Part shown: positions 1 to 39,000 of the stretch, piece by piece
How the letters are laid out: the number at the start of each line of letters is the position of its first letter
Numbering within the stretch: the stretch's first letter is position 1
Source of the DNA: a virus
Taxonomy: Duplodnaviria; Heunggongvirae; Uroviricota; Caudoviricetes
DNA length: 41,089 nt
Direction: 5' to 3' (one strand)
Virus record (IMG/VR): IMGVR_UViG_2563366819_000008
Made by a program: the position numbers and the translations under genes
The notes under the pieces: generated by a model
Database searches by the model: none
Seen by the model: the letters and a program-made list of their open reading frames with translations, nothing else
Told to the model about the DNA's origin: nothing

Positions 1-516
1 ATGGAATTTAAAAAATGTCTTCTGCCTGTGGCAATGTTAGCGTCATTCACTCTGGCAGGATGCCAGTCAAATGCTGATGATCATGCCGCCGATGTTTATC
101 AAACCGATCAACTGAATACCAAACAAGAAACTAAAACCGTTAATATTATTTCCATTCTTCCCGCAAAAGTTGCCGTAGACAACTCCCAAAATAAACGAAA
201 CGCACAAGCCTTCGGCGCGCTTATTGGTGCAGTCGCTGGCGGTGTTATTGGCCACAACGTCGGGTCTGGCAGCAATTCCGGAACGACGGCAGGTGCAGTT
301 GGCGGCGGAGCTGTTGGCGCGGCAGCGGGTTCTATGGTGAATGATAAAACCTTAGTGGAAGGTGTTTCTCTAACGTATAAGGAAGGCACCAAAGTGTATA
401 CCTCCACCCAGGTGGGTAAAGAGTGCCAGTTTACGACAGGTTTAGCCGTTGTTATTACCACGACGTATAACGAAACGCGTATTCAGCCAAATACCAAATG
501 TCCTGAAAAGAGCTAA
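1..516 (+). CDS. yfgH: Outer-membrane lipoprotein with glycine-zipper region (YfgH-like); host flank
   Basis: Signal peptide with lipobox LAGC; Gly/Ala-rich zipper GAVAGGVIGHNVGSG...; symbol is tentative, based on size and synteny with a 179-aa neighbour and a guaA 3' end. Confidence 0.5.
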   Translation: MEFKKCLLPVAMLASFTLAGCQSNADDHAADVYQTDQLNTKQETKTVNIISILPAKVAVDNSQNKRNAQAFGALIGAVAGGVIGHNVGSGSNSGTTAGAVGGGAVGAAAGSMVNDKTLVEGVSLTYKEGTKVYTSTQVGKECQFTTGLAVVITTTYNETRIQPNTKCPEKS

Positions 517-531
517 TGATCAGGAGGAGTC

Positions 532-1071
532 ATGAAGAAAGTTTTTCTTTGCGCCATCTTAGCCTCCTTAAGCTATCCGGCTATCGCCTCATCATTGCAG
601 GATCAACTCTCTGCTGTCGCAGAAGCGGAACAGCAAGGTAAAAATGAAGAGCAAAGGCAGCATGACGAATGGGTCGCGGAGCGCAACAGGGAAATCCAGC
701 AAGAGAAGCAACGTCGCGCAAACGCCCAGGCCGCCGCTAACAAAAGAGCGGCAACGGCAGCGGCAAATAAGAAAGCTCGTCAGGATAAACTGGACGCCGA
801 AGCCTCTGCGGACAAAAAACGCGATCAAAGTTATGAAGATGAGCTACGCAGCTTAGAGATTCAGAAACAAAAACTGGCGCTGGCGAAAGAAGAAGCCCGC
901 GTTAAGCGAGAAAACGAATTTATCGATCAGGAACTGAAGCACAAAGCTGCGCAAACCGATGTGGTGCAATCTGAAGCTGACGCAAACAGGAATATGACTG
1001 AGGGCGGTCGCGATCTGATGAAAAGCCTGGGCAAAGCAGAAGAGAACAAATCGGACAGCTGGTTTAACTAA
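532..1071 (+). CDS. yfgI: Secreted coiled-coil protein, 179 aa (YfgI-like); host flank
   Basis: N-terminal signal peptide; charged Q/E/K/R/A-rich body; RBS aggagg upstream; symbol tentative, from synteny and length only. Confidence 0.45.
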   Translation: MKKVFLCAILASLSYPAIASSLQDQLSAVAEAEQQGKNEEQRQHDEWVAERNREIQQEKQRRANAQAAANKRAATAAANKKARQDKLDAEASADKKRDQSYEDELRSLEIQKQKLALAKEEARVKRENEFIDQELKHKAAQTDVVQSEADANRNMTEGGRDLMKSLGKAEENKSDSWFN

Positions 1072-3405: not shown

Positions 3406-6400
3406 TTAACGTTCTTCCAGAGACTGAACCCGCTCTTTTATCTTATCCATTTCTCTGCGCTGCCATGCTGCCTCGATATAGAATAAGAGATCAGGTCTGA
3501 CCCCCCATCTAGATCCTGCTGGCGTTATTTCAACGCGCTCAATGATGTCTTCTATTACCATCACTGGATTATCATCCTCATCAACAATGATGCTCCCGTC
3601 ATTATCAGTCAGCGGCATTTCCCTTTGGCCAGTAATGACGTCATCATATACTGCGGGATAATCGTCATAGCAAAGAAAGGCATAGCGGCATGTTGTGCTT
3701 TCTTCTTCCATGAGTCCGTGAGAAATAAGAACATCACGAAGTTGCTGCGCGATTACACCATGATGTATCCTCGCCCCTTCTTCCCCCTTTATAGCGACAG
3801 CGTTCAGCCATTTATAAGCGATATACCTGACGTCACCCCAGGCATCCAGCAATGCTTCGTCAGGAGAGACCGGCTCTGTCTTTAATGTTCCGTCACTGGT
3901 AACCACAGGATTGGAGCCAAGATAAACTGTCGAGAACCTGTTTCCCGGACCACCAAGAGCATTTACATTATCAAGATAAGGTTTAACATCTCCGTTCTCA
4001 AAAAGATGTTCGAGTGCGTTATATACCGCGCGACGTGGAGTACTGCTTCCGGAACCATGCAACGTTATCATTGCACCATCTGCTGAAGACGTTGTTTCAC
4101 CGCCGCTAACGATTAATCTCTGAGCGGTAACATCATCAGACGGTACTTTCTTCGCAATAATGGCGTAATTACCCTCAAGTTTGACTTCCGCGCGAACTTG
4201 TCCTGATGTACCTGCATGGACAGTCAGTGACTGGACGGCAACATCATCTGTGAAATCAACGGGTACAGGAACCGTCCTCACGCCTGACGTCGACATAAAA
4301 GTAGGAAGCGTTCTGTTAGGAGTGGCTCCGTAGACAAAATCCCTTGAAACAAATTCTTCCTGTTTAATTTTCACCCTGAAACAATACAAATCAGCCGGGT
4401 GACCATCGTGAACATAAGGATATTTTCTGTTGTTATCCCCTATGCTCCATGGGTTTAGAAAGTCTTCTCCACCGAAAATGTAGTACAGCCAGTTGTCTTT
4501 GATACAAACTGAACCAACACCAACCGCAGAGTTAACTATTCCGCCCTGATAAATCTGATCAGTAACATTAACCCACTCTACATTATCCAGACTCCACTCA
4601 TTGACGTTAACTCTGGTCATAAATGTTCTTGGATAATTTCCTGCATAACGGTTATCAGGCTCTCCTCCTTCCCACTCACCAAATGCGCGCTCACTGCCAA
4701 AAATAATCAGCTCATCGCCAACTTTGGCAAAAGGAAGGTTTGAGTGATGAACATTATTTGGGAAGCGAAGAGAATTCCATGATGTACCTAAATCAGAGCT
4801 TCTGTGCAATGAACTACCGGGTTGAGTACTTAATGTCCCCCTGGTCGTCAGATACAGAATGCCATCATAATATTTTACACATGGCTCAGATGCATTCGCC
4901 TCATATTCTGCAGGTATGCGTCTGCGAACAAAGCTACCAGGAGAACCGAAAGCATCAGAGAAATAGAGTATCCCAAGCTCGCGTGGACCAATATCACCAT
5001 TATGGTAGCCAACAGCAAAACTGTTATCGCTAATCGTCGCAAAACTGTGAATCTCAGTAACAGGAGTGCTTCCGTCAACAAAAGAAGGAATAGTTCCAAG
5101 ACTGGTTTTTCTCCATGGTGACGAGTGAAATGATGTACCAAAACTCCAGTATCTACCCTCGTTATTCTGATCCACATCCTGGGTATTTTGCGTCGTAACT
5201 GTAAAAGTATTTTTATCAATAACAGTAGTCACCGTCATATTCCCGGTAACACCTGTAACACCAGAGTTTGAGAAGTTGACAAAATCACCAGCAAATAATC
5301 CGTGATCAGTAATGCGAATATAAGCGACTTGCTGATTTGCTGCTTTCGTTATACCACCATAAACGCGAAGGCTGCGACTCATTGGGCGATCCCACAACTC
5401 TGCAACCTGCAGTTTATTTCCGCTCACGGTCCGCGTCTCAATTACAGCAAAAAGGCGATTTCTGACAACCCCCATACTCATGCAGTGATAGTTAACTGTG
5501 GGATAGTTTTCATGTAAATCTGTAAGCCATTCCGGCGTTGTCCAGGTCTTCCCGTCATCTCCTGAGCGAACCCATGCAACATGGAGGTTATTTACACCAT
5601 GGCGGTCTCCAGCCATAAAAGGCGCATAGATGACATTGTCATATACAAACGTTTTATCCTGCGTCCAGGCGTTGTACCACGGTGTATCTGTAATTTTAAA
5701 TAACTCTCCCTGGATAAAATCTTCAGAAGCATAAAAAAGAGGCTGGCCCGGTATTCTCTCAAATAAAAAACGAGCATTTTTAAATCGACTGACATCCGGA
5801 AGAGTTGATACTTTAAAAGTAAGCCCTAATCCGTCAATTTTATAACCTGGAGATGAGGCTTCAAGGCACGCGCTTATTGCAGTGGAGTCGTCATTTATAC
5901 CATCACCAACAGCTCCAAAATCTTTGGGGCTAATAGCATCACGCATTTTATCCTGGAACGTTCGGTACACAGCCCCAGAACCATACTGAATAAACCAACC
6001 AAAACCACCAACAACCCCGGCAATTGCAGCATCAACATAATTACGCATTGAGCGATTATTTACAGCGTCCTGCTCAAATGATGGATCTGCAAGGTTAGAA
6101 ATTTTGTTTTGCTTTGCATCGTAATATTTTGCAAGCAGAGAGGGCTTCATCAATGCACGTCTGAACCACCCAAAACATTGCTGGATCAGCATCGTCAGGT
6201 AGTCAAAGGCATCTTCATGCACTTCGGGGAAAAATTTTCCCTGATTGCGAAGGTCTGTCTCCTGCACTACATCAAGCACACGATCTATCGTAATTCGCCA
6301 TCCAGTAGCAAGCGGAGACGGAAGAACCACAGAACCGCCACTATAAGTGCCCGCCCCAGTTACCGTATAACCGGTATCCAGGACCAATTCTGTTACGTTC

Positions 6401-6525
6401 CCGTTCAGGTCAGACACCTGAACAACCAGGTCTGATTTTCTGAAAATTCGAAAAGTATACGGAAACGATGTCGTAACGCCGTTACCGGTGTATTCGTTGT
6501 GGTCAACTTCGGTTGAGACCGTCAT
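3406..6525 (-). CDS. Tailspike protein (1039 aa) with beta-helix glycosidase-like body and C-terminal intramolecular-chaperone domain
   Basis: N-terminal particle-binding type domain; DFGAVGDGINDDSTAI motif typical of pectate-lyase-fold tailspikes; C-terminal region resembling self-cleaving chaperone domains of endosialidase-type fibres. Confidence 0.8.
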   Translation of the reverse strand: MTVSTEVDHNEYTGNGVTTSFPYTFRIFRKSDLVVQVSDLNGNVTELVLDTGYTVTGAGTYSGGSVVLPSPLATGWRITIDRVLDVVQETDLRNQGKFFPEVHEDAFDYLTMLIQQCFGWFRRALMKPSLLAKYYDAKQNKISNLADPSFEQDAVNNRSMRNYVDAAIAGVVGGFGWFIQYGSGAVYRTFQDKMRDAISPKDFGAVGDGINDDSTAISACLEASSPGYKIDGLGLTFKVSTLPDVSRFKNARFLFERIPGQPLFYASEDFIQGELFKITDTPWYNAWTQDKTFVYDNVIYAPFMAGDRHGVNNLHVAWVRSGDDGKTWTTPEWLTDLHENYPTVNYHCMSMGVVRNRLFAVIETRTVSGNKLQVAELWDRPMSRSLRVYGGITKAANQQVAYIRITDHGLFAGDFVNFSNSGVTGVTGNMTVTTVIDKNTFTVTTQNTQDVDQNNEGRYWSFGTSFHSSPWRKTSLGTIPSFVDGSTPVTEIHSFATISDNSFAVGYHNGDIGPRELGILYFSDAFGSPGSFVRRRIPAEYEANASEPCVKYYDGILYLTTRGTLSTQPGSSLHRSSDLGTSWNSLRFPNNVHHSNLPFAKVGDELIIFGSERAFGEWEGGEPDNRYAGNYPRTFMTRVNVNEWSLDNVEWVNVTDQIYQGGIVNSAVGVGSVCIKDNWLYYIFGGEDFLNPWSIGDNNRKYPYVHDGHPADLYCFRVKIKQEEFVSRDFVYGATPNRTLPTFMSTSGVRTVPVPVDFTDDVAVQSLTVHAGTSGQVRAEVKLEGNYAIIAKKVPSDDVTAQRLIVSGGETTSSADGAMITLHGSGSSTPRRAVYNALEHLFENGDVKPYLDNVNALGGPGNRFSTVYLGSNPVVTSDGTLKTEPVSPDEALLDAWGDVRYIAYKWLNAVAIKGEEGARIHHGVIAQQLRDVLISHGLMEEESTTCRYAFLCYDDYPAVYDDVITGQREMPLTDNDGSIIVDEDDNPVMVIEDIIERVEITPAGSRWGVRPDLLFYIEAAWQRREMDKIKERVQSLEER

Positions 6526-6628
6526 GTTAAATCTCCAGATAGTCGCAGCACCCGTTGCGCCGCATATCTGGTTATTCTATTACCTGAAAAACCACATATG
6601 GATAAAAAGACTATAAATACCAATAGAT

Positions 6629-6645
6629 ATTACCTTTCGGGTAAT
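6629..6645. promoter_or_regulatory. Operator-like palindrome ATTACC-TTTCG-GGTAAT
   Basis: Perfect 6-bp inverted repeat with 5-bp spacer in the divergent region between tailspike and 6721 gene; same motif recurs 10 or more times. Confidence 0.6.
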
Positions 6646-6682
6646 TTGCAAAACGTGCTGGATAGCAAACAAATTATTTGTT

Positions 6683-6700
6683 ACTGTATAAACATACAGT
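6683..6700. promoter_or_regulatory. LexA (SOS) box TACTGTATAAACATACAGT
   Basis: CTGT-N8-ACAG with AT-rich centre, about 20 bp upstream of RBS ggagaag and ATG at 6721. Confidence 0.7.
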
Positions 6701-6720
6701 TATTGCATGGAGAAGATAAG

Positions 6721-6978
6721 ATGCAGCAGTATCACTATCCACTGGAAGACGGATTTACCGAAAGGATTCACACGCCGGGAGGCGTCAGGTCACTGGTGGA
6801 GGGATCGCACTTGATGAAATTACTCCGGGATCTCGATAAGGATGGATTTAATGTCGATGGCCCACTTGCCGAACTGACTGCACTGATTAACTACGTCACC
6901 AGCTCACAGATGTCTATGCAGGATCTGCAAACACATCTCGACTATTGTGCCGAACAATTACGAAAACAAACCAGATAA
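6721..6978 (+). CDS. Small SOS-controlled protein, paralogue of the C-terminal domain of the downstream antirepressor
   Basis: 85 aa; about 45 percent identical to the C-terminus of the 7296..7952 product (shared LAELT...DLQTH/DIQTH block); LexA box immediately upstream. Confidence 0.5.
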   Translation: MQQYHYPLEDGFTERIHTPGGVRSLVEGSHLMKLLRDLDKDGFNVDGPLAELTALINYVTSSQMSMQDLQTHLDYCAEQLRKQTR

Positions 6979-7008
6979 GGTTTGCAATTACCAAATGGAG
7001 TGCTTATA

Positions 7009-7025
7009 TTTACCTTTGCGGTAAA
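7009..7025. promoter_or_regulatory. Operator-like palindrome TTTACC-TTTGC-GGTAAA
   Basis: Same TTACC-N5-GGTAA motif. Confidence 0.55.
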
Positions 7026-7115
7026 TTTACATCGCACTCCTCTTGTGCCATAGTAATCGGGCACTGGCAAAATCCAGTGCCGGGATTGGTCTCCCGGATT
7101 ACTAAGTGGCGCATA

Positions 7116-7137
7116 CCACGCCAGACGTGGTTTTTTT
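7116..7137 (+). terminator. Intrinsic terminator (CCACG/CGTGG hairpin plus T7)
   Basis: ccacgccagacgtggttttttt; lies in the 270-bp leader between operator 7009 and ant start 7296. Confidence 0.5.
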
Positions 7138-7295
7138 ATGCGTATAGCACAGTCATGCCAGAATTATGGTGGGCTGAATGGGGGTCCGAAAGGACGCCGG
7201 TACCACTTAGGCCGGTAAGACCAACTCCGTTCAGTTCACCACCATCTGATTGGTCTCAGCGGTGGTGATGTAATTCGCTAAGTGGAGACGCCATC

Positions 7296-7952
7296 ATGAA
7301 CGCTCAACTCATCCCCGTATTCAACGGCACTATATCTAACGAAACAGCCCTACTTTGTAATGCCCGCGATCTGCACGCTTTTTTAGGTGTTAAAAAGGTG
7401 TTTGCAGCATGGATTACAAATCGCATATCAGAATACGAATTCATTGAAAATCAAGACTATATTTTGCTTTCCAATTTGGGAAAGCAAACATCTGGTAGAG
7501 GCGGCCACAACCGCAAAGAGTACCACCTCACCCTTGATACAGCCAAAGAGCTGGCGATGGTCGAGCGTAACGAAAAAGGTCGTCAGGTACGACGCTACTT
7601 CATTGAATGCGAGAAACGTTTAAGACAACAAGAAACAAAAGTGGAGAAGGTCTTGTCAGGCTTCATGCCCGCCATTATGGAGGCGATCAAGCTGGAAGAC
7701 AAAAAAGAATACAGTGCCCCGCTGAAGCCCGGCTACCGCAGCCTGATTCATTCGCCGTCTGGTGTTCTCGGCCTGACGGAGAACTCACTGCTGATGAATC
7801 TGCTGAACCAGTTACAGGAAGACGGGCACGACGTATCGGGCGCGGCGGCGGAGCTGACCACCATGTTCTGCTACATCGTCGGTGTGAGCAAATGCCTGCG
7901 TGATATCCAGACGCACGCGGAGTACATCAACGACAAGGCAGGGTTCTTCTGA
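7296..7952 (+). CDS. Antirepressor (AntA-like N-terminal domain)
   Basis: N-terminal LIPVFNG...[10 protein letters not shown]...[16 protein letters not shown] resembles AntA/Rha-type antirepressor domains; lies in an immI-like position next to tailspike. Confidence 0.6.
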
Positions 7953-8023
7953 CGGGCGGTGGCACAGGGATGTGCCTTTAAATAATTCTGTACAGATTGC
8001 AGACTGTGGGTGAATAGCGTACT

Positions 8024-8040
8024 ATTACCTTAAAGGTAAA
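8024..8040. promoter_or_regulatory. Operator-like palindrome ATTACC-TTAAA-GGTAAA abutting an RBS
   Basis: Motif followed immediately by ggaggcgcgat ATG (8052). Confidence 0.55.
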
Positions 8041-8051
8041 GGAGGCGCGAT

Positions 8052-8219
8052 ATGACAGCGTTGAAAAATCGTACTCAGCACAATGAACAAGCCAAGCAAT
8101 GCTGGGATGTCATTGGAAAAGTTATGCTTGGCCGCGCAAGCAAAGAGCGCGACAAGGATATGGTTTACCAGACAGGAACATCTTTCAGCGACTTCAAGGC
8201 GGCATTTCGCTCCAAATAG
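8052..8219 (+). CDS. Hypothetical small protein (55 aa)
   Basis: ATG with strong RBS aaaggagg; below the ORF-track size cutoff, translated by hand. Confidence 0.35.
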   Translation: MTALKNRTQHNEQAKQCWDVIGKVMLGRASKERDKDMVYQTGTSFSDFKAAFRSK

Positions 8220-8239
8220 AAGCACATCAGGAGTTTTCC

Positions 8240-8680
8240 TTGAAGTTTAACATTAGAATATCTAATAGTTTTCTACATGGGGAAAGCAACACCCCTTTCG
8301 CTGTAGACGGACCTTTCCTTACTGATGATGAAATAAAAATCATACAAAGTTTTTTAGAGGATGTTGCCAATGGAAGGGCGCTTGTTGGAAAAAACAAGCC
8401 CTCGTGGGTTGATGATAACCATGATAAAATTCCCGGCTCAGACAATTATGAGCAAGAGAATTATTGGCATTATCATTGTGGGCCAACATGGTATCCAAAC
8501 ACATTTAAGAATTATACCATTAACTTAAATTTCAACCCTGGCGGAAGGCATTCTAATGAATGCATTCATTATGCAAAAAATGATAATGAAATTGTCATTG
8601 TTGGATTTTCAAGAGAACACATACCTTTCCTTTCATCAGATGGAAACAACAATCCGCTTTTTAATGATGAAGAAGAATAG
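8240..8680 (+). CDS. Hypothetical protein, AT-rich, probable TTG start, no internal Met
   Basis: In-frame TTG at 8240 with RBS caggag 6 nt upstream; upstream part of the 8099 ORF overlaps the 55-aa gene and looks non-coding; terminator follows. Confidence 0.4.
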   Translation: MKFNIRISNSFLHGESNTPFAVDGPFLTDDEIKIIQSFLEDVANGRALVGKNKPSWVDDNHDKIPGSDNYEQENYWHYHCGPTWYPNTFKNYTINLNFNPGGRHSNECIHYAKNDNEIVIVGFSREHIPFLSSDGNNNPLFNDEEE

Positions 8681-8700
8681 CCCGCGCTGCGGGCTTTTTT
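8680..8700 (+). terminator. Intrinsic terminator (GCCCGC/GCGGGC hairpin plus T6)
   Basis: agcccgcgctgcgggctttttt right after the 8680 stop. Confidence 0.65.
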
Positions 8701-8772
8701 GTGGACGAAACAAAAGTCAGTGCTACACTCATTGACGCCACATTGAGGTGGCTTATAGATGGAAATTTCACA

Positions 8773-8934
8773 ATGAAAAAAGCATTTGCTGCACTGTTCG
8801 TTTTGTTGTCTCTGGTAGCTTCAACTCAGGCCTTTGCCGGTCGTTGTCAGCACGACAGCGATACTGCCGCTGACGGCTCCCGCTGCGGTGGGCGTTCTGC
8901 GGATTCCCGCCCGGGTGGCGGTGGCATTCGTTAA
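8773..8934 (+). CDS. Small secreted peptide (53 aa, about 31-aa mature part with 2 Cys)
   Basis: Start at internal MKKAFAALFVLLSLVASTQAFA signal peptide; Gly/Arg-rich C-terminus. Confidence 0.35.
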   Translation: MKKAFAALFVLLSLVASTQAFAGRCQHDSDTAADGSRCGGRSADSRPGGGGIR

Positions 8935-8940
8935 AAACAA

Positions 8941-8956
8941 GGCCGCGAAAGCGGCC
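8941..8956 (-). terminator. GNRA-type hairpin GGCCGC-GAAA-GCGGCC, with U-run on the minus strand
   Basis: On the minus strand it follows the lipoprotein stop and the 12-bp palindrome and is followed by TTGTTTTT. Confidence 0.5.
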
Positions 8957-8957
8957 T

Positions 8958-8969
8958 GTGACATGTCAC
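8958..8969. repeat. 12-bp perfect palindrome GTGACATGTCAC (copy 1 of 3)
   Basis: Contains the TGA stop of the 8966..9346 lipoprotein gene; adjacent to terminator hairpin. Confidence 0.8.
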
Positions 8970-9346
8970 GCAACGCAATTATTACCGCGCCATGTAACAT
9001 TTTTAATAATCTTATCAGCACCAAACTCAACGTAAACAGAGCAACTGAAATGGAGTGTATAACCGCCATCAGTTGTTGCGTATGTGTTTGAATATATAGT
9101 ATTACCAATTAGATTAGACGTAGTATTATACGTTGTGGTTTGTGGTACGTTATAACTACCAGAGCTTGAGTAAACATACACTCTGTTTCCATCTGGAGAT
9201 GTAAGCTCTCCCTGAGGATACCCCCACTGCTGAACCATTGCGTCTATACTCTGCCCGCGCCACGTAAGCATATTTCTTTCAAACTGTGCAGCTGACTGGC
9301 ATCCAACGAGAAGCATAAATCCAAAAATCAAAAATACTTTTCTCAT
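8966..9346 (-). CDS. Lipoprotein of unknown function (cargo gene; superinfection-exclusion candidate)
   Basis: Start at MRKVFLIFGFMLLVGC with lipobox; RBS agggg; Thr/Ser/Asn/Tyr-rich mature domain. Confidence 0.55.
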   Translation of the reverse strand: MRKVFLIFGFMLLVGCQSAAQFERNMLTWRGQSIDAMVQQWGYPQGELTSPDGNRVYVYSSSGSYNVPQTTTYNTTSNLIGNTIYSNTYATTDGGYTLHFSCSVYVEFGADKIIKNVTWRGNNCVA

Positions 9347-9431
9347 AATTACCCCTATCATGGAAAAACAGCACCAATCCACAAATTAACTAGTTATTTT
9401 ATTATTCTTCCGAACAATACAATTCCGAATA

Positions 9432-21607: not shown

Positions 21608-21658
21608 CTTCTTTCTCCATTAGTGGGCCTGTTGCGGCCCACAGGTTAATAACAGGCG

Positions 21659-25551: not shown

Positions 25552-25640
25552 ATCAATGACTCCGTACGCAATTAAATTATTACCAATTTAACCACATATG
25601 ATTTATTTATCGTAGACAGTTGACATTTAACGCGCGAATT

Positions 25641-25657
25641 ATTACCTTTCAGGTAAC
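25641..25657. promoter_or_regulatory. Operator-like palindrome ATTACC-TTTCA-GGTAAC upstream of the portal operon
   Basis: Same TTACC-N5-GGTAA motif; TTGACA-like hexamer about 20 bp to the left. Confidence 0.55.
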
Positions 25658-25978
25658 CAAAGAGTTCATTCCGGTTACTAACCTGACTGGCTTGTCGTTA
25701 AATTGAACAGGTGGAGTGAGCTTTTATTTTGAGCAGTACGGCGTATGGCACATGCGACGATAGCGGTCTGGATACGTTTAAGGGGCACCCTCCCTTGCTC
25801 GGGCAAACGAACCAGGTAGCCGGAATGTGCAAGTCGAGCGGTTTTATTCCGCGCACGGGGATTCACCATCCCGGCTATTCGGTGTGACGCCTCGGAAGAG
25901 ACGAGGGTACAACGATGAGAGCATTTATGGAGCCGCGACAAAGTGTGGCGCCTTAACAGGCTAAGTGCTCTCAGCGTT

Positions 25979-26055
25979 GTGGCATTAGCTCAGTCGGACA
26001 GAGCAACCGCCTTCTAAGCGGTTGGTCGCAGGTTCGAATCCTGCATGCCACGCCA
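25979..26055 (+). tRNA. tRNA-Arg, anticodon UCU (reads AGA)
   Basis: Acceptor stem GTGGCAT/ATGCCAC, D arm GCTC/GAGC, anticodon stem ACCGC/GCGGT with loop CTTCTAA, T arm GCAGG-TTCGAAT-CCTGC, 3' GCCA; similar but not identical to host argU. Confidence 0.85.
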
Positions 26056-26253: not shown

Positions 26254-26676
26254 ATGAAAACAGCCGACATGCTAGCTAAATATCTAAATGAATGGCCGTG
26301 CAAATATGTACGCATTGTTCAGGGTGATGATTCAATTTTTTATGGTGTTTTTGCAGGAAATGAAATGCTTTGTGAAGCAATTCCAGGTGAGCGACTTGCC
26401 GGGTTAACGCTTAGCGATGACCATGGAATAGGAGTTACTTGCCATGACTGGATTTCAGCGCAGAAAACTGAAATGGAAAAAGGCAATGTGTTTGATATTT
26501 CTCGCGCTGTATACGCCAAAGAAAAAAGTGATGATGATTACATGCGCGAAAACTTATACAACATGAAGTTACAATGCCTGGCTGAAGTGCTTAGTAAAAG
26601 ATCTTTACTTGATGTGGTTGGTGCTGAGCAGGACGCCAAGGCAATCAACGCCGCATTCGATAAAATAACCTTCTAA
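26254..26676 (+). CDS. Hypothetical cytoplasmic protein (140 aa), cargo gene antisense to the late operon
   Basis: Good RBS; no TM or signal peptide; own terminator; no family recognised. Confidence 0.5.
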   Translation: MKTADMLAKYLNEWPCKYVRIVQGDDSIFYGVFAGNEMLCEAIPGERLAGLTLSDDHGIGVTCHDWISAQKTEMEKGNVFDISRAVYAKEKSDDDYMRENLYNMKLQCLAEVLSKRSLLDVVGAEQDAKAINAAFDKITF

Positions 26677-31851: not shown

Positions 31852-31868
31852 TTTACCTCTGAGGTAAT
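31852..31868. promoter_or_regulatory. Operator-like palindrome TTTACC-TCTGA-GGTAAT overlapping the RBS of the 31849 gene
   Basis: Right half-site GGTAA lies in the GAGGT Shine-Dalgarno. Confidence 0.55.
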
Positions 31869-33572: not shown

Positions 33573-33773
33573 TCAGCTTGAGTGTTGTGGGGAGGAATTA
33601 ATCATGATCTGCTTAATCTCTGCCCTGATGCGACGGTTTGATTCCATGGTGCACTCAACACAGTGTCCGTTGTAAACCCAGCGTTCACTGTCATGTCCGT
33701 GCTTACATGGTTTTCCGGTGTAGTAGCGTTTAAGTCCGCGCTTTGCGGCATCAATACGTGTAATGATTTCCAT
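33573..33773 (-). CDS. Small zinc-binding protein in the cII position
   Basis: Motif CKHGH...CVEC; start codon uncertain (alternative at 33836). Confidence 0.35.
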   Translation of the reverse strand: MEIITRIDAAKRGLKRYYTGKPCKHGHDSERWVYNGHCVECTMESNRRIRAEIKQIMINSSPQHSS

Positions 33774-33852
33774 GGTAAGCCCTGTTATTAGTATTGGGAT
33801 TACGGTCATTTTGTGCTGACACAAAAAAAAGATCAACCAGATTTGGTTTTTT

Positions 33853-33869
33853 ATTACCTTTGAGGTACG
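33853..33869. promoter_or_regulatory. Operator-like site ATTACC-TTTGA-GGTACG (one mismatch)
   Basis: Between Cro-like gene and the next gene. Confidence 0.45.
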
Positions 33870-33923
33870 AATAGATATGAAAAGACCGCCGGGTGGCGGT
33901 CTACAGAGGGTTGTAGCTGGATA

Positions 33924-34154
33924 TCATGAGTAGAAGAAGTATGCCAGTTCTGCTTTTGAGCGCAGCCATTGTCTTGTTTTACAGGCTTTAAAAAGCCCAT
34001 TCATCAATACCTTACCTGGCATTTTGCGCTTACCTGTTAAGTGAGTCTGGATATAGTGACTCGTCGTTCCGGCTTCCTGTGCGAAGGCTTCACGCTCATC
34101 CGGAGTAAGTGCAAGCCAGTGCTTTTTGAAATCGAAATGTCCGTTATCGCTCAT
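33924..34154 (-). CDS. Cro-like HTH regulator
   Basis: Small HTH protein divergent from the repressor gene, first gene of the rightward early operon. Confidence 0.5.
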   Translation of the reverse strand: MSDNGHFDFKKHWLALTPDEREAFAQEAGTTSHYIQTHLTGKRKMPGKVLMNGLFKACKTRQWLRSKAELAYFFYS

Positions 34155-34190
34155 AGCTATTGCCTGATATTTATTTCAGATAATAAATAT

Positions 34191-34254
34191 TCACCCATAA
34201 GGTAACAAAAATCAAGGATAGTTACCTATGAGGTGCATTTACCTGTTGGGTAAT
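34191..34254. promoter_or_regulatory. Divergent immunity promoter region with three operator sites (two imperfect, one perfect TTTACC-TGTTG-GGTAAT at 34238-34254)
   Basis: TCACC-cataa-GGTAA, TTACC-tatga-GGTGC and a perfect site between the Cro-like and repressor genes. Confidence 0.6.
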
Positions 34255-34308
34255 ATTGCTTTAAATTGAATCATCTACTGATTCATATATGAGGCGATTT
34301 TCCAGAAA

Positions 34309-34893
34309 ATGAAAAGTATCCAGGACGTCCGCAGGCAAAATCTCAACGACTTGATCGACCGTGAATTCAATGGTGTTCAGACGCGGATGGCAGAAAAACT
34401 TGGAACTCAGGCAAATCTGGTAAACCGCTGGGCTCTTGGCAAGAAGGTTATCGGCGACCAGGTTGCACGAAAAATTGAAGCTGCCGCCAATAAACCCCGT
34501 AACTGGCTTGATATCGATCGCTCGCTTTCTCAGGAAGGTTTTCAGCCTGTCGGCCCAAGCGACATTGGCCAGCTGGCGGCTCACAACCTGGAACGCTGGA
34601 TGAGCGAAAGCCGCGACCTTTCAACACAGGGAAAACTTCACCGCGCATCCGGCGTAGCCCAGGTGACAATCAGCCGCCTGTTAAACAATGAGGTCAGCGT
34701 TTCCATTTCCACCCTGGAGAATGTTGCATCCGCATTCGGGCGTCACGGCTATGAATTACTGATTCACCCGCACGACCCTGCGACCATCAACTATGATCGC
34801 TCGCGCTACGCATTGTTACCCGAAACCGAGAAAGCAAAGATCGAAAGTTACATTGAATTTGTCATCAACCAGAACGAAAAAAACAAACAATAA
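34309..34893 (+). CDS. Repressor-position protein with two tandem HTH domains and no LexA-like autopeptidase domain
   Basis: Two HTH_XRE-like segments (QTRMAEKLGTQANLVNRW and HRASGVAQVTISRLL); divergent from cro; own terminator. Confidence 0.55.
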   Translation: MKSIQDVRRQNLNDLIDREFNGVQTRMAEKLGTQANLVNRWALGKKVIGDQVARKIEAAANKPRNWLDIDRSLSQEGFQPVGPSDIGQLAAHNLERWMSESRDLSTQGKLHRASGVAQVTISRLLNNEVSVSISTLENVASAFGRHGYELLIHPHDPATINYDRSRYALLPETEKAKIESYIEFVINQNEKNKQ

Positions 34894-34949: not shown

Positions 34950-34966
34950 ATTACCTAACGGGTAAT
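34950..34966. promoter_or_regulatory. Operator ATTACC-TAACG-GGTAAT (early-left promoter)
   Basis: Perfect 17-bp palindrome. Confidence 0.6.
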
Positions 34967-35011
34967 TTTTTTAACTCATATCTATTGACATCAAACCATA
35001 TACGCATAATT

Positions 35012-35028
35012 ATTACCTCAACGGTAAC
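35012..35028. promoter_or_regulatory. Operator ATTACC-TCAAC-GGTAAC (early-left promoter)
   Basis: Second site 62 bp from the first; TTGACA hexamer at about 34985 between them. Confidence 0.6.
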
Positions 35029-37246: not shown

Positions 37247-37495
37247 ATGAAAGGTGCATTAGGTAAGAAGGAACTCCTAGCGGTGGTGCCACTGTCATGG
37301 AGCACTATCGACCGTATGGAGCGCGCAGGGGAATTTCCTAAACGCTGGTATATCACCGATAAACGCTGCGCATGGAACCGTGATGAAGTTGAGCGTTGGC
37401 TTGATGAACGTCAGGCAGCAAGCCCGGCAGAGTTCCAGGGTAAAAAACCTCCTGTTCAGCAACGTGTATATCGTCCTGTGAGCAACGCTGCATGA
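37247..37495 (+). CDS. AlpA-like excisionase/regulator
   Basis: Small HTH with W...DRMERAGEFPKRW...W..DEVERWL pattern. Confidence 0.55.
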   Translation: MKGALGKKELLAVVPLSWSTIDRMERAGEFPKRWYITDKRCAWNRDEVERWLDERQAASPAEFQGKKPPVQQRVYRPVSNAA

Positions 37496-37652
37496 GTGCG
37501 CTGCTAAGGCACTGGAGCAAATGGTCAGGATGGTACTTATTCCTGGCCTCTGTTTCAGCATGGCTTTATCTGCTGGCATTAATTTTCAGAGAGGGTTGGA
37601 TTAAGTGAGAAAGTTAAGCCGACTTGAAAAATATCACATGAACAAGGTTTCA

Positions 37653-37904
37653 ATGCGCAGCCATTCAAAGGTTGTTGCCGTTACTCCTGCGGCGATAGAG
37701 ATCGAAAAACGCGCGATTGAAAGAGAGAAAAAAGGGCAGTTCCGCATTGCCGCCCACCTTTGGCTTCAGTGTATGGATGTTGCTTCTGGTGATGTTGAGC
37801 GTGCAAGGATCGCGGTTCGAAGGGACCAATGTATCACAAAAGGTAACGGCCTTCGCCGTGGCGACTATAGCGGTATAGGATGTTGCGGGGTGGTTTATGA
37901 ATAA
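37653..37904 (+). CDS. PerC-family-like small regulator (tentative)
   Basis: Block FRIAAHLWLQCMD...ERARIAVRRDQC resembles the PerC/Pch family as recalled; start chosen at ATG with aagg RBS. Confidence 0.4.
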   Translation: MRSHSKVVAVTPAAIEIEKRAIEREKKGQFRIAAHLWLQCMDVASGDVERARIAVRRDQCITKGNGLRRGDYSGIGCCGVVYE

Positions 37905-39000
37905 TCAAAACAATAATGTAAAAGGTAATATCATGAGCAAGGTAGGCGATTATTTCTTTGAATTTCCCGCATCACGAGGAGCGCAGGGAAGTACTGTAAT
38001 ACTTATGATGACAGTACCAGCAAGAGCACTATCGAGAGTATTGGCAACCGACAATACGGGAAGTACCCTTGAACGTTCTCAACGTGAAATTAATCCAACC
38101 AGGGTAAAAAAGTTTTATCAATATTTAGTCAACGCTTACGAGAAAAAGGAACCATTTATTGTTCCACCATTGGTCGGAAATTGTAACTCAGAAATAGAGT
38201 TCCATGAGATTGGAAATACTAATGTCGGTTTAGCTAGATTTCCTATGGATGCAGAAATAAAATTATTTGATGGACAGCATCGTGCTGCAGGATTAGCTGA
38301 GTTCTGCCGTAATTATGGTGAAACAATTATGATTCCTCTTATGCTTACGCATAACCTTCCTTTGAAGGCGCGTCAGCAGTTCTTTTCTGACATTAATAAT
38401 AATGTTTCAAAACCATCTGCAGCAATTAATATGGCGTATGACGGACGAAACGATGTTGCCCAAGAAATGGTGTCTTTCCTGTCGCAACATGACACTTTTG
38501 CAGAAGTCACTGACTTCGAGCACAACGTTGTTCCGTCAAAGTCAAACATGTGGGTGAGTTTCAAAGCATTAAGTGATTCAACATCAAAATTTTGTATTCA
38601 TAATGGGAAAAAACTAGAAATTGGTAACATCGAGTCAGTATGGGAATCATGGTTATGTCTTACACAACTAGAAGCAATTCGCCATGGTACAAAGCAATCA
38701 GAATACAAAAGAGAATATATCCAGTTTCATGCAGTGATGATTAACGCTTTTGGCTATGCTGTTCAGCAAATGATGGTTAATCACTCAATAAAAGAAATAA
38801 TTTCAATGATTGAAACATTATGTGCAAATACTGACTTCGCAGAAAGAGAGAATTTTTTCCTAATGGATAATTGGGTTGGGATCTGCACGAAAGCAAGCCA
38901 GGGAAAACTATCAGTTATTGCCAATGTAGCAGCACAGAAAGCGGCAGCAAACAGGCTGATACAAGCCTTTACCAAAGGAAGTCTGGGAGCAGAACAATGA
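37897..39000 (+). CDS. DGQHR-domain (DndB-like, ParB-fold) protein
   Basis: Explicit FDGQHRAAGL motif; overlaps upstream stop and downstream start. Confidence 0.65.
   Translation: MNNQNNNVKGNIMSKVGDYFFEFPASRGAQGSTVILMMTVPARALSRVLATDNTGSTLERSQREINPTRVKKFYQYLVNAYEKKEPFIVPPLVGNCNSEIEFHEIGNTNVGLARFPMDAEIKLFDGQHRAAGLAEFCRNYGETIMIPLMLTHNLPLKARQQFFSDINNNVSKPSAAINMAYDGRNDVAQEMVSFLSQHDTFAEVTDFEHNVVPSKSNMWVSFKALSDSTSKFCIHNGKKLEIGNIESVWESWLCLTQLEAIRHGTKQSEYKREYIQFHAVMINAFGYAVQQMMVNHSIKEIISMIETLCANTDFAERENFFLMDNWVGICTKASQGKLSVIANVAAQKAAANRLIQAFTKGSLGAEQ

Follow-up and report, generated by a model that had tools for sequence, protein, structure and literature searches.

A predicted two-tier antirepressor module for SOS induction in an epsilon15-like prophage of Escherichia coli

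The 41,089-nt stretch of DNA analysed here (IMG/VR record IMGVR_UViG_2563366819_000008; the whole stretch is called the window) is an epsilon15-like temperate podophage of the genus Uetakevirus integrated in E. coli. Following the lysis genes and tailspike, which lie on the minus strand at 3406-6525, and preceding the injection, tail, head and terminase genes, again on the minus strand, there is a short plus-strand island at 6600-8950. This island holds a gene for an 85-residue protein, ant, behind a LexA box, followed by two small RNAs, isrK and C4, and by a gene for a 218-residue AntA-like protein. The repressor gene, rep, belongs to the early/immunity region at about 28.9-39 kb and the integrase gene lies at the right end, an arrangement usual for the Uetakevirus group. 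Over 6400-8300, identity to Escherichia phage phiv142-3 is 99.1%, and that to phiV10, TL-2011b and ZX5 is about 90-94% in parts. We propose, from sequence comparison and by analogy with characterised phages, that the locus is an SOS-induction module with two tiers, in which a switch of the Salmonella phage SPC32H type would be joined by an RNA-gated second antirepressor; we give this reading a probability of about 0.82.

The LexA box and ant

6630-6644, no strand assigned: palindrome TTACCTTTCGGGTAA, predicted Rep operator upstream of the ant promoter
6659-6687, plus: tentative ant promoter, placed by eye, with -35 TGGATA, a 17-nt spacer and -10 TACTGT overlapping the LexA box
6682-6701, no strand assigned: LexA box TACTGTATAAACATACAGTT, from a pattern match and its conserved position across relatives
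6721-6978, plus: ant, by orthology an 85-residue SOS antirepressor, the SPC32H Ant orthologue, with a match to PDB 5D50 chain E

The product of ant matches one solved structure, chain E ('Anti-repressor protein') of PDB 5D50, over residues 2-84 (E 4e-47), and is 88% identical by tblastn to that of the gene annotated ant in the Salmonella phages SPC32H and SPC32N. The SPC32H Rep/Ant switch was reportedly worked out by Kim & Ryu in 2013 (J Virol) and by Kim et al. in 2016 (PNAS), with the structures PDB 5D4Z and 5D50. In SPC32H, ant occupies the same slot, between the tailspike and injection genes, and the small gene is the only antirepressor gene present in SPC32H and epsilon15. An earlier, sequence-only reading of this DNA had treated the small protein as a side-paralogue of the antirepressor proper, the AntA-like protein; these roles are reversed. 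Judged by orthology, the small protein is the characterised SOS antirepressor, SPC32H Ant, and not a side-copy of the large one, which is an optional add-on. The identification has some value for annotation, as the orthologue of a structurally characterised Ant carries only a 'hypothetical' label: searches of Pfam and NCBIfam with the small protein found no model, its PHROG (phrog_450) is labelled 'unknown function', and it is named 'hypothetical protein' both in PGAP/RefSeq E. coli genomes and in the E. coli phage records examined, ZX5 included. The large gene is named 'phage antirepressor Ant' or 'antA/AntB antirepressor family protein' by PGAP.

The near-consensus LexA box that had been noticed about 20 bp upstream of ant is present, although its start differs by one base from the position first given. 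The sequence TACTGTATAAACATACAGT stands at 6682-6700, with a gap of 20 nt to the ATG at 6721, and the box agrees with the consensus TACTGTATATATATACAGTA at 17 of 20 positions. For the strict pattern TACTGTAT-N4-ATACAGT, a window of the same composition should hold 0.02 copies; it occurs solely here. The looser pattern CTGT-N8-ACAG has three matches in the window, among which only the box at 6682 is AT-rich with TA flanks; those at 21629 and 26171, with GC-rich spacers and no TA flanks, were dismissed as chance.

Position, spacing and arms of the box are kept in eight of the ten related phage loci examined, namely the window, phiv142-3, SPC32H, epsilon15, phiV10, TL-2011b, Tyrion and BUCT554; the arms are constant among them and the AT-rich 8-bp spacer differs. 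In a scan of IMG/VR, the small protein was at least 99% identical in 80 loci. The IMG/VR set used for the counts in this work comprises 79 loci that encode a small Ant with no less than 99% identity to that of the window, and 76 of these have a perfect box. The region upstream of ant in SPC32H aligns with the window column for column, LexA box included. Across this region SPC32N carries one substitution relative to SPC32H, ACAG>AAAG, which falls in the box's right arm; Kim & Ryu 2013 reportedly describe SPC32N as a constitutively lytic sibling of SPC32H. Two Klebsiella phages, BUCT711 (L008) and ST512-KPC3phi13.3 (L009), have the left arm ATGT instead of CTGT (tatATGTATATATATACAGTa); identity to the window proteins is about 60% for their Ant and 45% for their Rep. 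A sigma-70 consensus scan called no convincing promoter for ant; the block CTGGATAG at the tentative promoter is conserved across the phages.

Rep and its predicted operators

34309-34893, plus: rep, 194-residue repressor homologous to SPC32H Rep, with two helix-turn-helix (HTH) domains but lacking an S24 peptidase
7010-7024, no strand assigned: palindrome, predicted Rep operator adjoining the -35 of the isrK promoter
8025-8039, no strand assigned: palindrome, predicted Rep operator, with a -10-like TACTAT on one side and the Shine-Dalgarno sequence of the open reading frame (ORF) 8052-8219 on the other
34191-34253, no strand assigned: palindromes, predicted operator cluster between rep and a divergent 75-residue HTH gene (33924-34154, minus)
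34951-35027, no strand assigned: two predicted operators spaced by 62 bp, on either side of a strong rightward TTGACA promoter (34985) downstream of rep

Rep matches chain A ('Repressor') of PDB 5D50 over its full length (E 4e-42) and is 42% identical to SPC32H Rep. The sequence-only reading had described the protein in the repressor position as lacking an S24 peptidase, and its Pfam matches are indeed confined to HTH domains: HTH_3 at 106-147 and a second, weak HTH at 21-61. Peptidase_S24 was also absent from the roughly 20 other early-region ORFs searched with Pfam. Most textbook temperate phages are induced by RecA-stimulated self-cleavage of the repressor, in which case the LexA box would be incidental, yet for this prophage such a course is hardly credible. 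Besides the missing S24 domain, the homology of Rep to its SPC32H counterpart speaks against it, as does a box that is conserved and carries a functional mutation in SPC32N, and no specific support for self-cleavage was found; SPC32H is, moreover, cited among the Salmonella prophages induced via an antirepressor (PMC7380047). The proposal that induction runs through a LexA-controlled antirepressor instead of RecA-mediated repressor cleavage is thus upheld, as both SPC32H partners have counterparts here and the box is in the same place. The same article, citing Kim & Ryu 2013, gives the sequence of events as LexA self-cleavage, antirepressor synthesis and inhibition of the repressor by protein-protein interaction (PMC7380047), and according to two further sources an Ant tetramer, by binding a pair of Rep dimers, breaks up the Rep tetramer that binds DNA (PMC9638917; bioRxiv 2025.11.27.690993).

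The divergence between the E. coli and Salmonella lineages is lopsided: Rep is 42% identical and Ant 88%, and the operator motif is unchanged (the ranges compared were, for Rep, 34309-34893 with 33739-34335 of SPC32H, L004, and, for Ant, 6721-6978 with 2995-3255 of L002). Ant-Rep binding in the present prophage is therefore an extrapolation to a diverged partner. Such an imbalance, unusual for a tightly co-evolving pair, could mean that the small protein of the E. coli lineage no longer targets its Rep and that the LexA-controlled gene has another SOS function. Several observations nevertheless make a lost target very improbable. Homologues of the two proteins share phage records, with Ant homologues in 35 and Rep homologues in 37 records of the same set; the operator motif and the promoter architecture are kept in both lineages; and a second, Rep-context-specific copy of the Ant domain is retained, in a carrier protein that was antirepressor-active when overexpressed in the ZX5 experiments described below. 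Among the E. coli phages in GenBank that were compared, Rep is 98.5-100% identical, and it does not differ between the window and ZX5.

The window holds 13 copies of the palindrome TTACC-N5-GGTAA, where 0.67 are expected, and the same motif stands at the same relative places in SPC32H. The GenBank record of epsilon15 annotates such palindromes as 'repressor' protein_bind features, including one upstream of gp19, the ant homologue. The LexA core follows the palindrome at 6630-6644 at a distance of 54 bp, the offset also found in related phages, and the distance from the palindrome to the isrK start is 51 bp in the window, Tyrion, TL-2011b and ST512-KPC3phi13.3 and 48 bp in phiV10. One predicted Rep operator precedes each transcription unit of the plus-strand island, and further copies are found at other intergenic promoters in the window. 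Pairs of palindromes spaced 62 bp from start to start bracket promoters at 31853/31915 and 34951/35013 in the window and at 33604/33666 and 35972/36034 in SPC32H (L004). Such pairs would suit a tetrameric Rep whose two DNA-binding units bridge both palindromes.

The isrK/C4 cassette and the AntA-like fusion

7026-7054, plus: P_isrK, promoter-like site from a consensus scan (TTTACA, 17 nt, TG-CATAGT)
7061-7137, plus: isrK small RNA (Rfam RF01394) with an intrinsic terminator (stem 7115-7131 and T-run)
7162-7246, plus: C4 antisense RNA (Rfam RF01695)
7250-7285, plus: C4 target sites b2 (7250-7256, TTGGTCT) and a2 (7278-7285, CTAAGTGG)
7296-7952, plus: predicted chimeric second antirepressor, with an AntA N-terminal domain (nt 7359-7571) and an Ant-like C-terminal domain (about nt 7698-7949)

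The 317 bp between ant and the AntA-like gene hold the isrK and C4 RNAs, which exceed their gathering scores of 50 and 45 with 67.7 and 61.2 bits, respectively. This module, together with the predicted Rep operator of the AntA-like gene, was left out of the sequence-only reading. The start predicted from P_isrK, at about 7061, is the first position of the isrK model match. C4 has two loops, a' (CCACTTAG, 7203-7210, 8 nt) and b' (AGACCAA, 7218-7224, 7 nt), each exactly complementary to two sites: a1 (7102-7109) and b1 (7086-7092) are decoys carried by isrK, and a2 and b2 lie before the large gene, a2 coinciding in part with the Shine-Dalgarno sequence, 11 nt ahead of the ATG at 7296. The read-through RNA folds with z = -4.9 against shuffled controls, with a1/b1 paired in cis to a'/b'. 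Because the terminator at 7115-7137 separates the two genes, the AntA-like gene lies outside the LexA-controlled transcription unit. Matches to isrK and C4 are also present in phiV10, TL-2011b, Tyrion and ST512-KPC3phi13.3. In TL-2011b (L010, 2780-3868) and in four of six IMG/VR loci checked (L014, L016, L022 and L023), an insertion of 0.8-1.1 kb lies between ant and isrK, so that ant and C4 are 1023-1260 nt apart compared with 184 nt in the window; in TL-2011b the sole annotation of the insert, on the opposite strand, is 'similar to hypothetical protein'.

The 218-residue protein is AntA-like, as had been proposed, with PF08346 at residues 22-92 (E 4e-26), and phrog_377 spans its full length. 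The 85-residue Ant aligns without gaps to its residues 137-210 at 42% identity (31/74, E 3e-16), in keeping with an earlier estimate of about 45%, and residues 137-213 match chain E of 5D50 (E 4.6e-14). The AntA part (7292-7616) is about 91% identical in nucleotide sequence to the ant genes of Stx phages, and the large gene is therefore a chimera. It has the modular composition of the AntA/Bro-N/pRha/ORF6N antirepressors, in which a KilA-N-like N-terminal module is joined to a variable C-terminal effector. When 1.84 billion representatives were searched with a profile of the Ant domain, only 62 cluster members were returned, all of the Ant type, and the longer members of the family carry Bro-N, AntA, Phage_pRha or ORF6N N-terminal domains.

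The RNAs are of the P1/P7 immI (C4 antisense control, Rfam clan CL00128) and Gifsy-1 isrK type. The immI operon of P1/P7 is said, after Citron & Schuster 1990, to consist of the c4 antisense RNA, icd and ant. In P1, the C4 antisense RNA controls the Ant antirepressor (PMC8201110). The likeness to the cassette described here extends to the two-loop C4-family RNA, the duplicated targets a1/b1 upstream and a2/b2 downstream on the same transcript, the downstream target that blocks an antirepressor, and the existence of specificity variants. The Rep-type palindrome at the promoter would be a candidate analogue of Op51, through which the primary repressor controls the operon promoter. There are three differences. 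The first is that no icd-like ORF is conserved and that a2 covers the antirepressor's own ribosome-binding site. The second concerns the antirepressor, which in the window is unrelated to P1 Ant, being composed of AntA or Bro-N and an SPC32H-type Ant domain. The third is that this is an integrated podophage, whereas P1/P7 is a plasmid prophage.

In the isrK-orf45-anrP region of Gifsy-1 (Hershko-Shalev et al. 2016, PMC4825925), an antirepressor-like gene is transcribed via read-through of the isrK terminator and stays untranslated until short IsrK acts in trans (PMC4825925). The predicted likeness of the window to it takes in an isrK with a leaky terminator, a processed RNA (the STnc1160/C4 region), the antirepressor-like gene and the complementarity of short IsrK to the downstream RNA. 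It differs in having a Rep-type palindrome at the promoter, in its output, which would presumably be Rep inactivation rather than the antQ activation of Gifsy-1, and in lacking a conserved orf45. Comparison of the window with ZX5 shows no protein-level conservation of a coupled ORF of the icd/orf45 kind: a 37-codon ORF in the window (7156-7268) ends 27 nt before the ATG, and the annotated 37-codon 'ash' ORF of ZX5 encodes an unrelated peptide and ends 6 nt before the ATG. The translational-coupling step of Gifsy-1 may therefore not apply here.

The cassette is present in about 65 of the 79 IMG/VR loci and falls into six loop/target classes, formed by four a' and two b' sequences in different combinations. 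In phiV10, TL-2011b and ZX5 the loops are a' CCTTTTAG and b' ACGCCAA, and in Tyrion and one Klebsiella phage they are a' CCTTTGTAG and b' AGACCAA; in both groups, both copies of each target have changed in step with the loops. Of the classes, class 1 takes in this prophage and phiv142-3, and class 3 takes in phiV10 and ZX5. The N-terminal domain of the controlled protein also differs among the classes, being AntA in the window type and one of four Bro-N variants elsewhere, and across these AntA/Bro-N fusion classes the last 88 or so residues are 93-100% identical to those of the window. One class (L013, L027 and L061; a' CCTACTAG, b' ACGCCAA) has the isrK/C4 gate before an unrelated 168-residue protein (MPGQKISNDDLY...) that has no Ant-like C-terminal domain; the RNA gate is therefore generic and not Rep-specific. 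In about 13 of the 79 loci, as in SPC32H and epsilon15, ant is followed directly by a terminator with no cassette, and the cassette is thus optional. About 79 of 5,426 complete E. coli genomes carry the cassette in full.

ZX5, whose small Ant and Rep are identical to those of the window, is inducible by mitomycin C (PMC9782041). Its ORF4 product (230 residues, Bro-N N-terminal domain) has a C-terminal domain 100% identical to that of the window fusion. Overexpression of ORF4 lowered lysogens from about 1e9 to 1e6, roughly 1000-fold, and rep mRNA by 75%; only the large protein was tested, and the relevant passages make no mention of the LexA-controlled gene or the RNAs (PMC9782041). That ORF4, with its identical C-terminal domain, steers the phage away from lysogeny when overexpressed might suggest that induction depends mainly on the AntA-like protein, with the small one as its minor or regulatory paralogue, for instance a decoy or modulator. 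This was the emphasis of the first interpretation, and databases likewise label only the large protein as an antirepressor. We regard it as improbable: SPC32H and epsilon15, which have the small gene only, are fully switchable through it; some 13 of the 79 E. coli-type loci do without the cassette; and the LexA box is found only at the small gene, the large one lying behind a terminator and an antisense-RNA block.

The diversity of the cassette bears on another alternative, in which the second module serves anti-immunity or heteroimmunity in the P1/P7 style during superinfection, and not induction. An incoming phage with a differing C4 would express its AntA/Bro-N::Ant C-terminal domain fusion, disable the shared Rep, and escape or induce the resident. 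The scenario overlaps the second tier of the module proposed here and departs from it only in the main biological role. It draws on the near-identity of Rep and of the small Ant among E. coli phages and loci, on the six covarying C4 classes and shuffled N-terminal domains set against a nearly constant C-terminal domain, on the label 'putative anti-immunity protein' given to the gene by the annotators of phiV10, and on P1, where Ant is under the control of C1, C4 and Icd (PMC8201110). On the other side, the L013-type class gates an unrelated 168-residue protein, which makes the cassette a general gate, and the Rep identity figure covers the GenBank phages only. We consider superinfection a serious contender for the principal role, if at slightly less than an even chance.

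The two-tier reading and neighbouring genes

In the two-tier reading, Rep would hold the early promoters of the lysogen through the TTACC-N5-GGTAA operators, and host LexA, bound to the box at 6682-6701, would shut the ant promoter. Upon DNA damage, activated RecA would promote LexA self-cleavage and ant would be transcribed; Ant would then bind Rep and dismantle the DNA-bound Rep tetramer without proteolysis, so that the early promoters fire and the lytic genes are turned on. These steps are experimental in SPC32H and are inferred here by orthology. The second tier, the whole of which we infer, would be a separate unit read from P_isrK, with most transcripts ending at the isrK terminator and a read-through RNA carrying C4 and the AntA::Ant fusion gene. 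As in P1/P7 immI, loops a' and b' of C4 would pair with a2 and b2 and cover the ribosome-binding site, leaving the second antirepressor untranslated in the lysogen; as in Gifsy-1, an excess of short IsrK with its a1/b1 decoys could lift the C4 block. Since a predicted Rep operator abuts P_isrK, the cassette probably responds to Rep occupancy as well, and release may come from loss of Rep at the 7010 operator, from a rise of IsrK relative to C4, or from both. The Ant-like C-terminal domain of the fusion would then probably bind the same Rep, and the released fusion would either reinforce commitment or act in trans on the Rep of a resident prophage during superinfection. The second tier is most likely an anti-immunity or commitment device.

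Several points weigh against this reading. This phage is known from sequence alone, and Ant-Rep binding is extrapolated across the gap between the 42% identity of Rep and the 88% identity of Ant to their SPC32H partners. The Rep operator is predicted, on the basis of a GenBank annotation and of position, and the sites just upstream of -35 elements (6630 and 7010) are compatible with repression or activation. The ant promoter is not exactly defined, with a best -10 that is weak and was missed by the consensus scan. An icd/orf45-like coupled ORF is not conserved. Finally, the effect of ZX5 ORF4 came from an overexpressed GST fusion, and its active part was not pinned to the C-terminal domain.

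The core of the module is the SPC32H Rep/Ant switch re-identified in an E. coli K1-type prophage, with no new mechanism. The two resemble each other in the 88% identity of Ant, a two-domain Rep without S24, a LexA box equally far from the ATG, a TTACC-N5-GGTAA palindrome upstream of ant, and the slot of ant between the tailspike and injection genes. They differ in Rep, which is only 42% identical, and SPC32H and epsilon15 are without the RNA-gated second cassette and the extra small genes found 3' of ant here. As the system is orthologous to one characterised both structurally and genetically, the finding as first stated is already known. What may go further is a circuit in which one Rep-binding domain would be used twice, as a LexA-gated stand-alone trigger and as the effector part of an immI cassette resembling that of P1/P7, under the control of isrK/C4 and a Rep operator; the cassette's at least six C4 specificities and shuffled N-terminal domains (AntA and several Bro-N types) would make phages with the same Rep and the same Ant heteroimmune. 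We put this forward tentatively, as an idea somewhat nearer to doubtful than to probable. The link between SOS-type and immI-type antirepressors and the diversification of RNA specificity seem to be undescribed in the literature found. If the circuit is real, otherwise homoimmune phages would be heteroimmune and one could break the repression of another, and the combination of a conserved Rep-binding domain, interchangeable N-terminal domains and covarying C4 could matter for prophage competition and cross-induction in E. coli.

Other phages offer looser parallels. In Tum of phage 186, GfoA/GftA of the Gifsy phages and AntC of N15, as here, an uncleaved repressor is inactivated by a small LexA-repressed binding protein (PMC3121763); these proteins belong to other families, and the Ant profile search (62 representatives, all of the Ant type) gave no sequence relationship to them. 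The immI region of P22 (mnt-arc-ant-sar) likewise places an antirepressor region among late tail genes by the tailspike, with bipartite immunity, but its control is by Mnt, Arc and sar, in contrast to LexA and C4 RNA here. A search for P22-like Arc/Mnt regulators found none, the 55-residue ORF at 8052 having no Pfam or NCBIfam match and belonging to one uncharacterised PHROG. The self-cleaving repressors of the lambda CI/LexA type differ in their C-terminal Peptidase_S24 domain, which Rep lacks.

Four small cargo genes lie 3' of the antirepressor; all are absent from SPC32H.

8052-8219, plus: 55-residue ORF, behind a Rep-type palindrome
8240-8680, plus: 146-residue cargo protein, phrog_5954
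8734-8934, plus: 66-residue membrane-associated moron, phrog_14503/3117
8966-9382, minus: 137-residue cargo protein with a lipoprotein-like N-terminus (by eye), phrog_3716

A Trp_leader match at 8596-8702 scored 21.5 bits (E 0.38), below the gathering score of 41, and was discarded as noise.

On the other side of the island, the tailspike (3406-6525, minus) is a full K1-type endosialidase with End_N_terminal, beta-propeller (E 1e-233), beta-barrel, End_tail_spike and S74 chaperone domains, and the host is therefore probably a K1-capsulated E. coli. Its match to phiv142-3 is confined to the N-terminal head-binding part, the tail fibre of phiv142-3 being shorter. Within 25620-26055 (plus), a TTGACA promoter overlapped by a Rep-type palindrome (25642-25656) is directed toward tRNA-Arg(tct) at 25979-26055 and an ORF at 26254-26676; a tRNA-Arg is found at the equivalent place in SPC32H too. 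The early-left operon (37247-39000, plus) encodes RecT and a PDDEXK exonuclease, followed by an AlpA-like regulator, a PerC-like activator and a DndB-like protein, the last being associated with DNA sulfur modification. At the left edge of the window (1-1071, plus) are genes for a glycine-zipper/TraT-like protein, with a lipoprotein-like signal sequence recognised by eye, and a DUF5384 protein.

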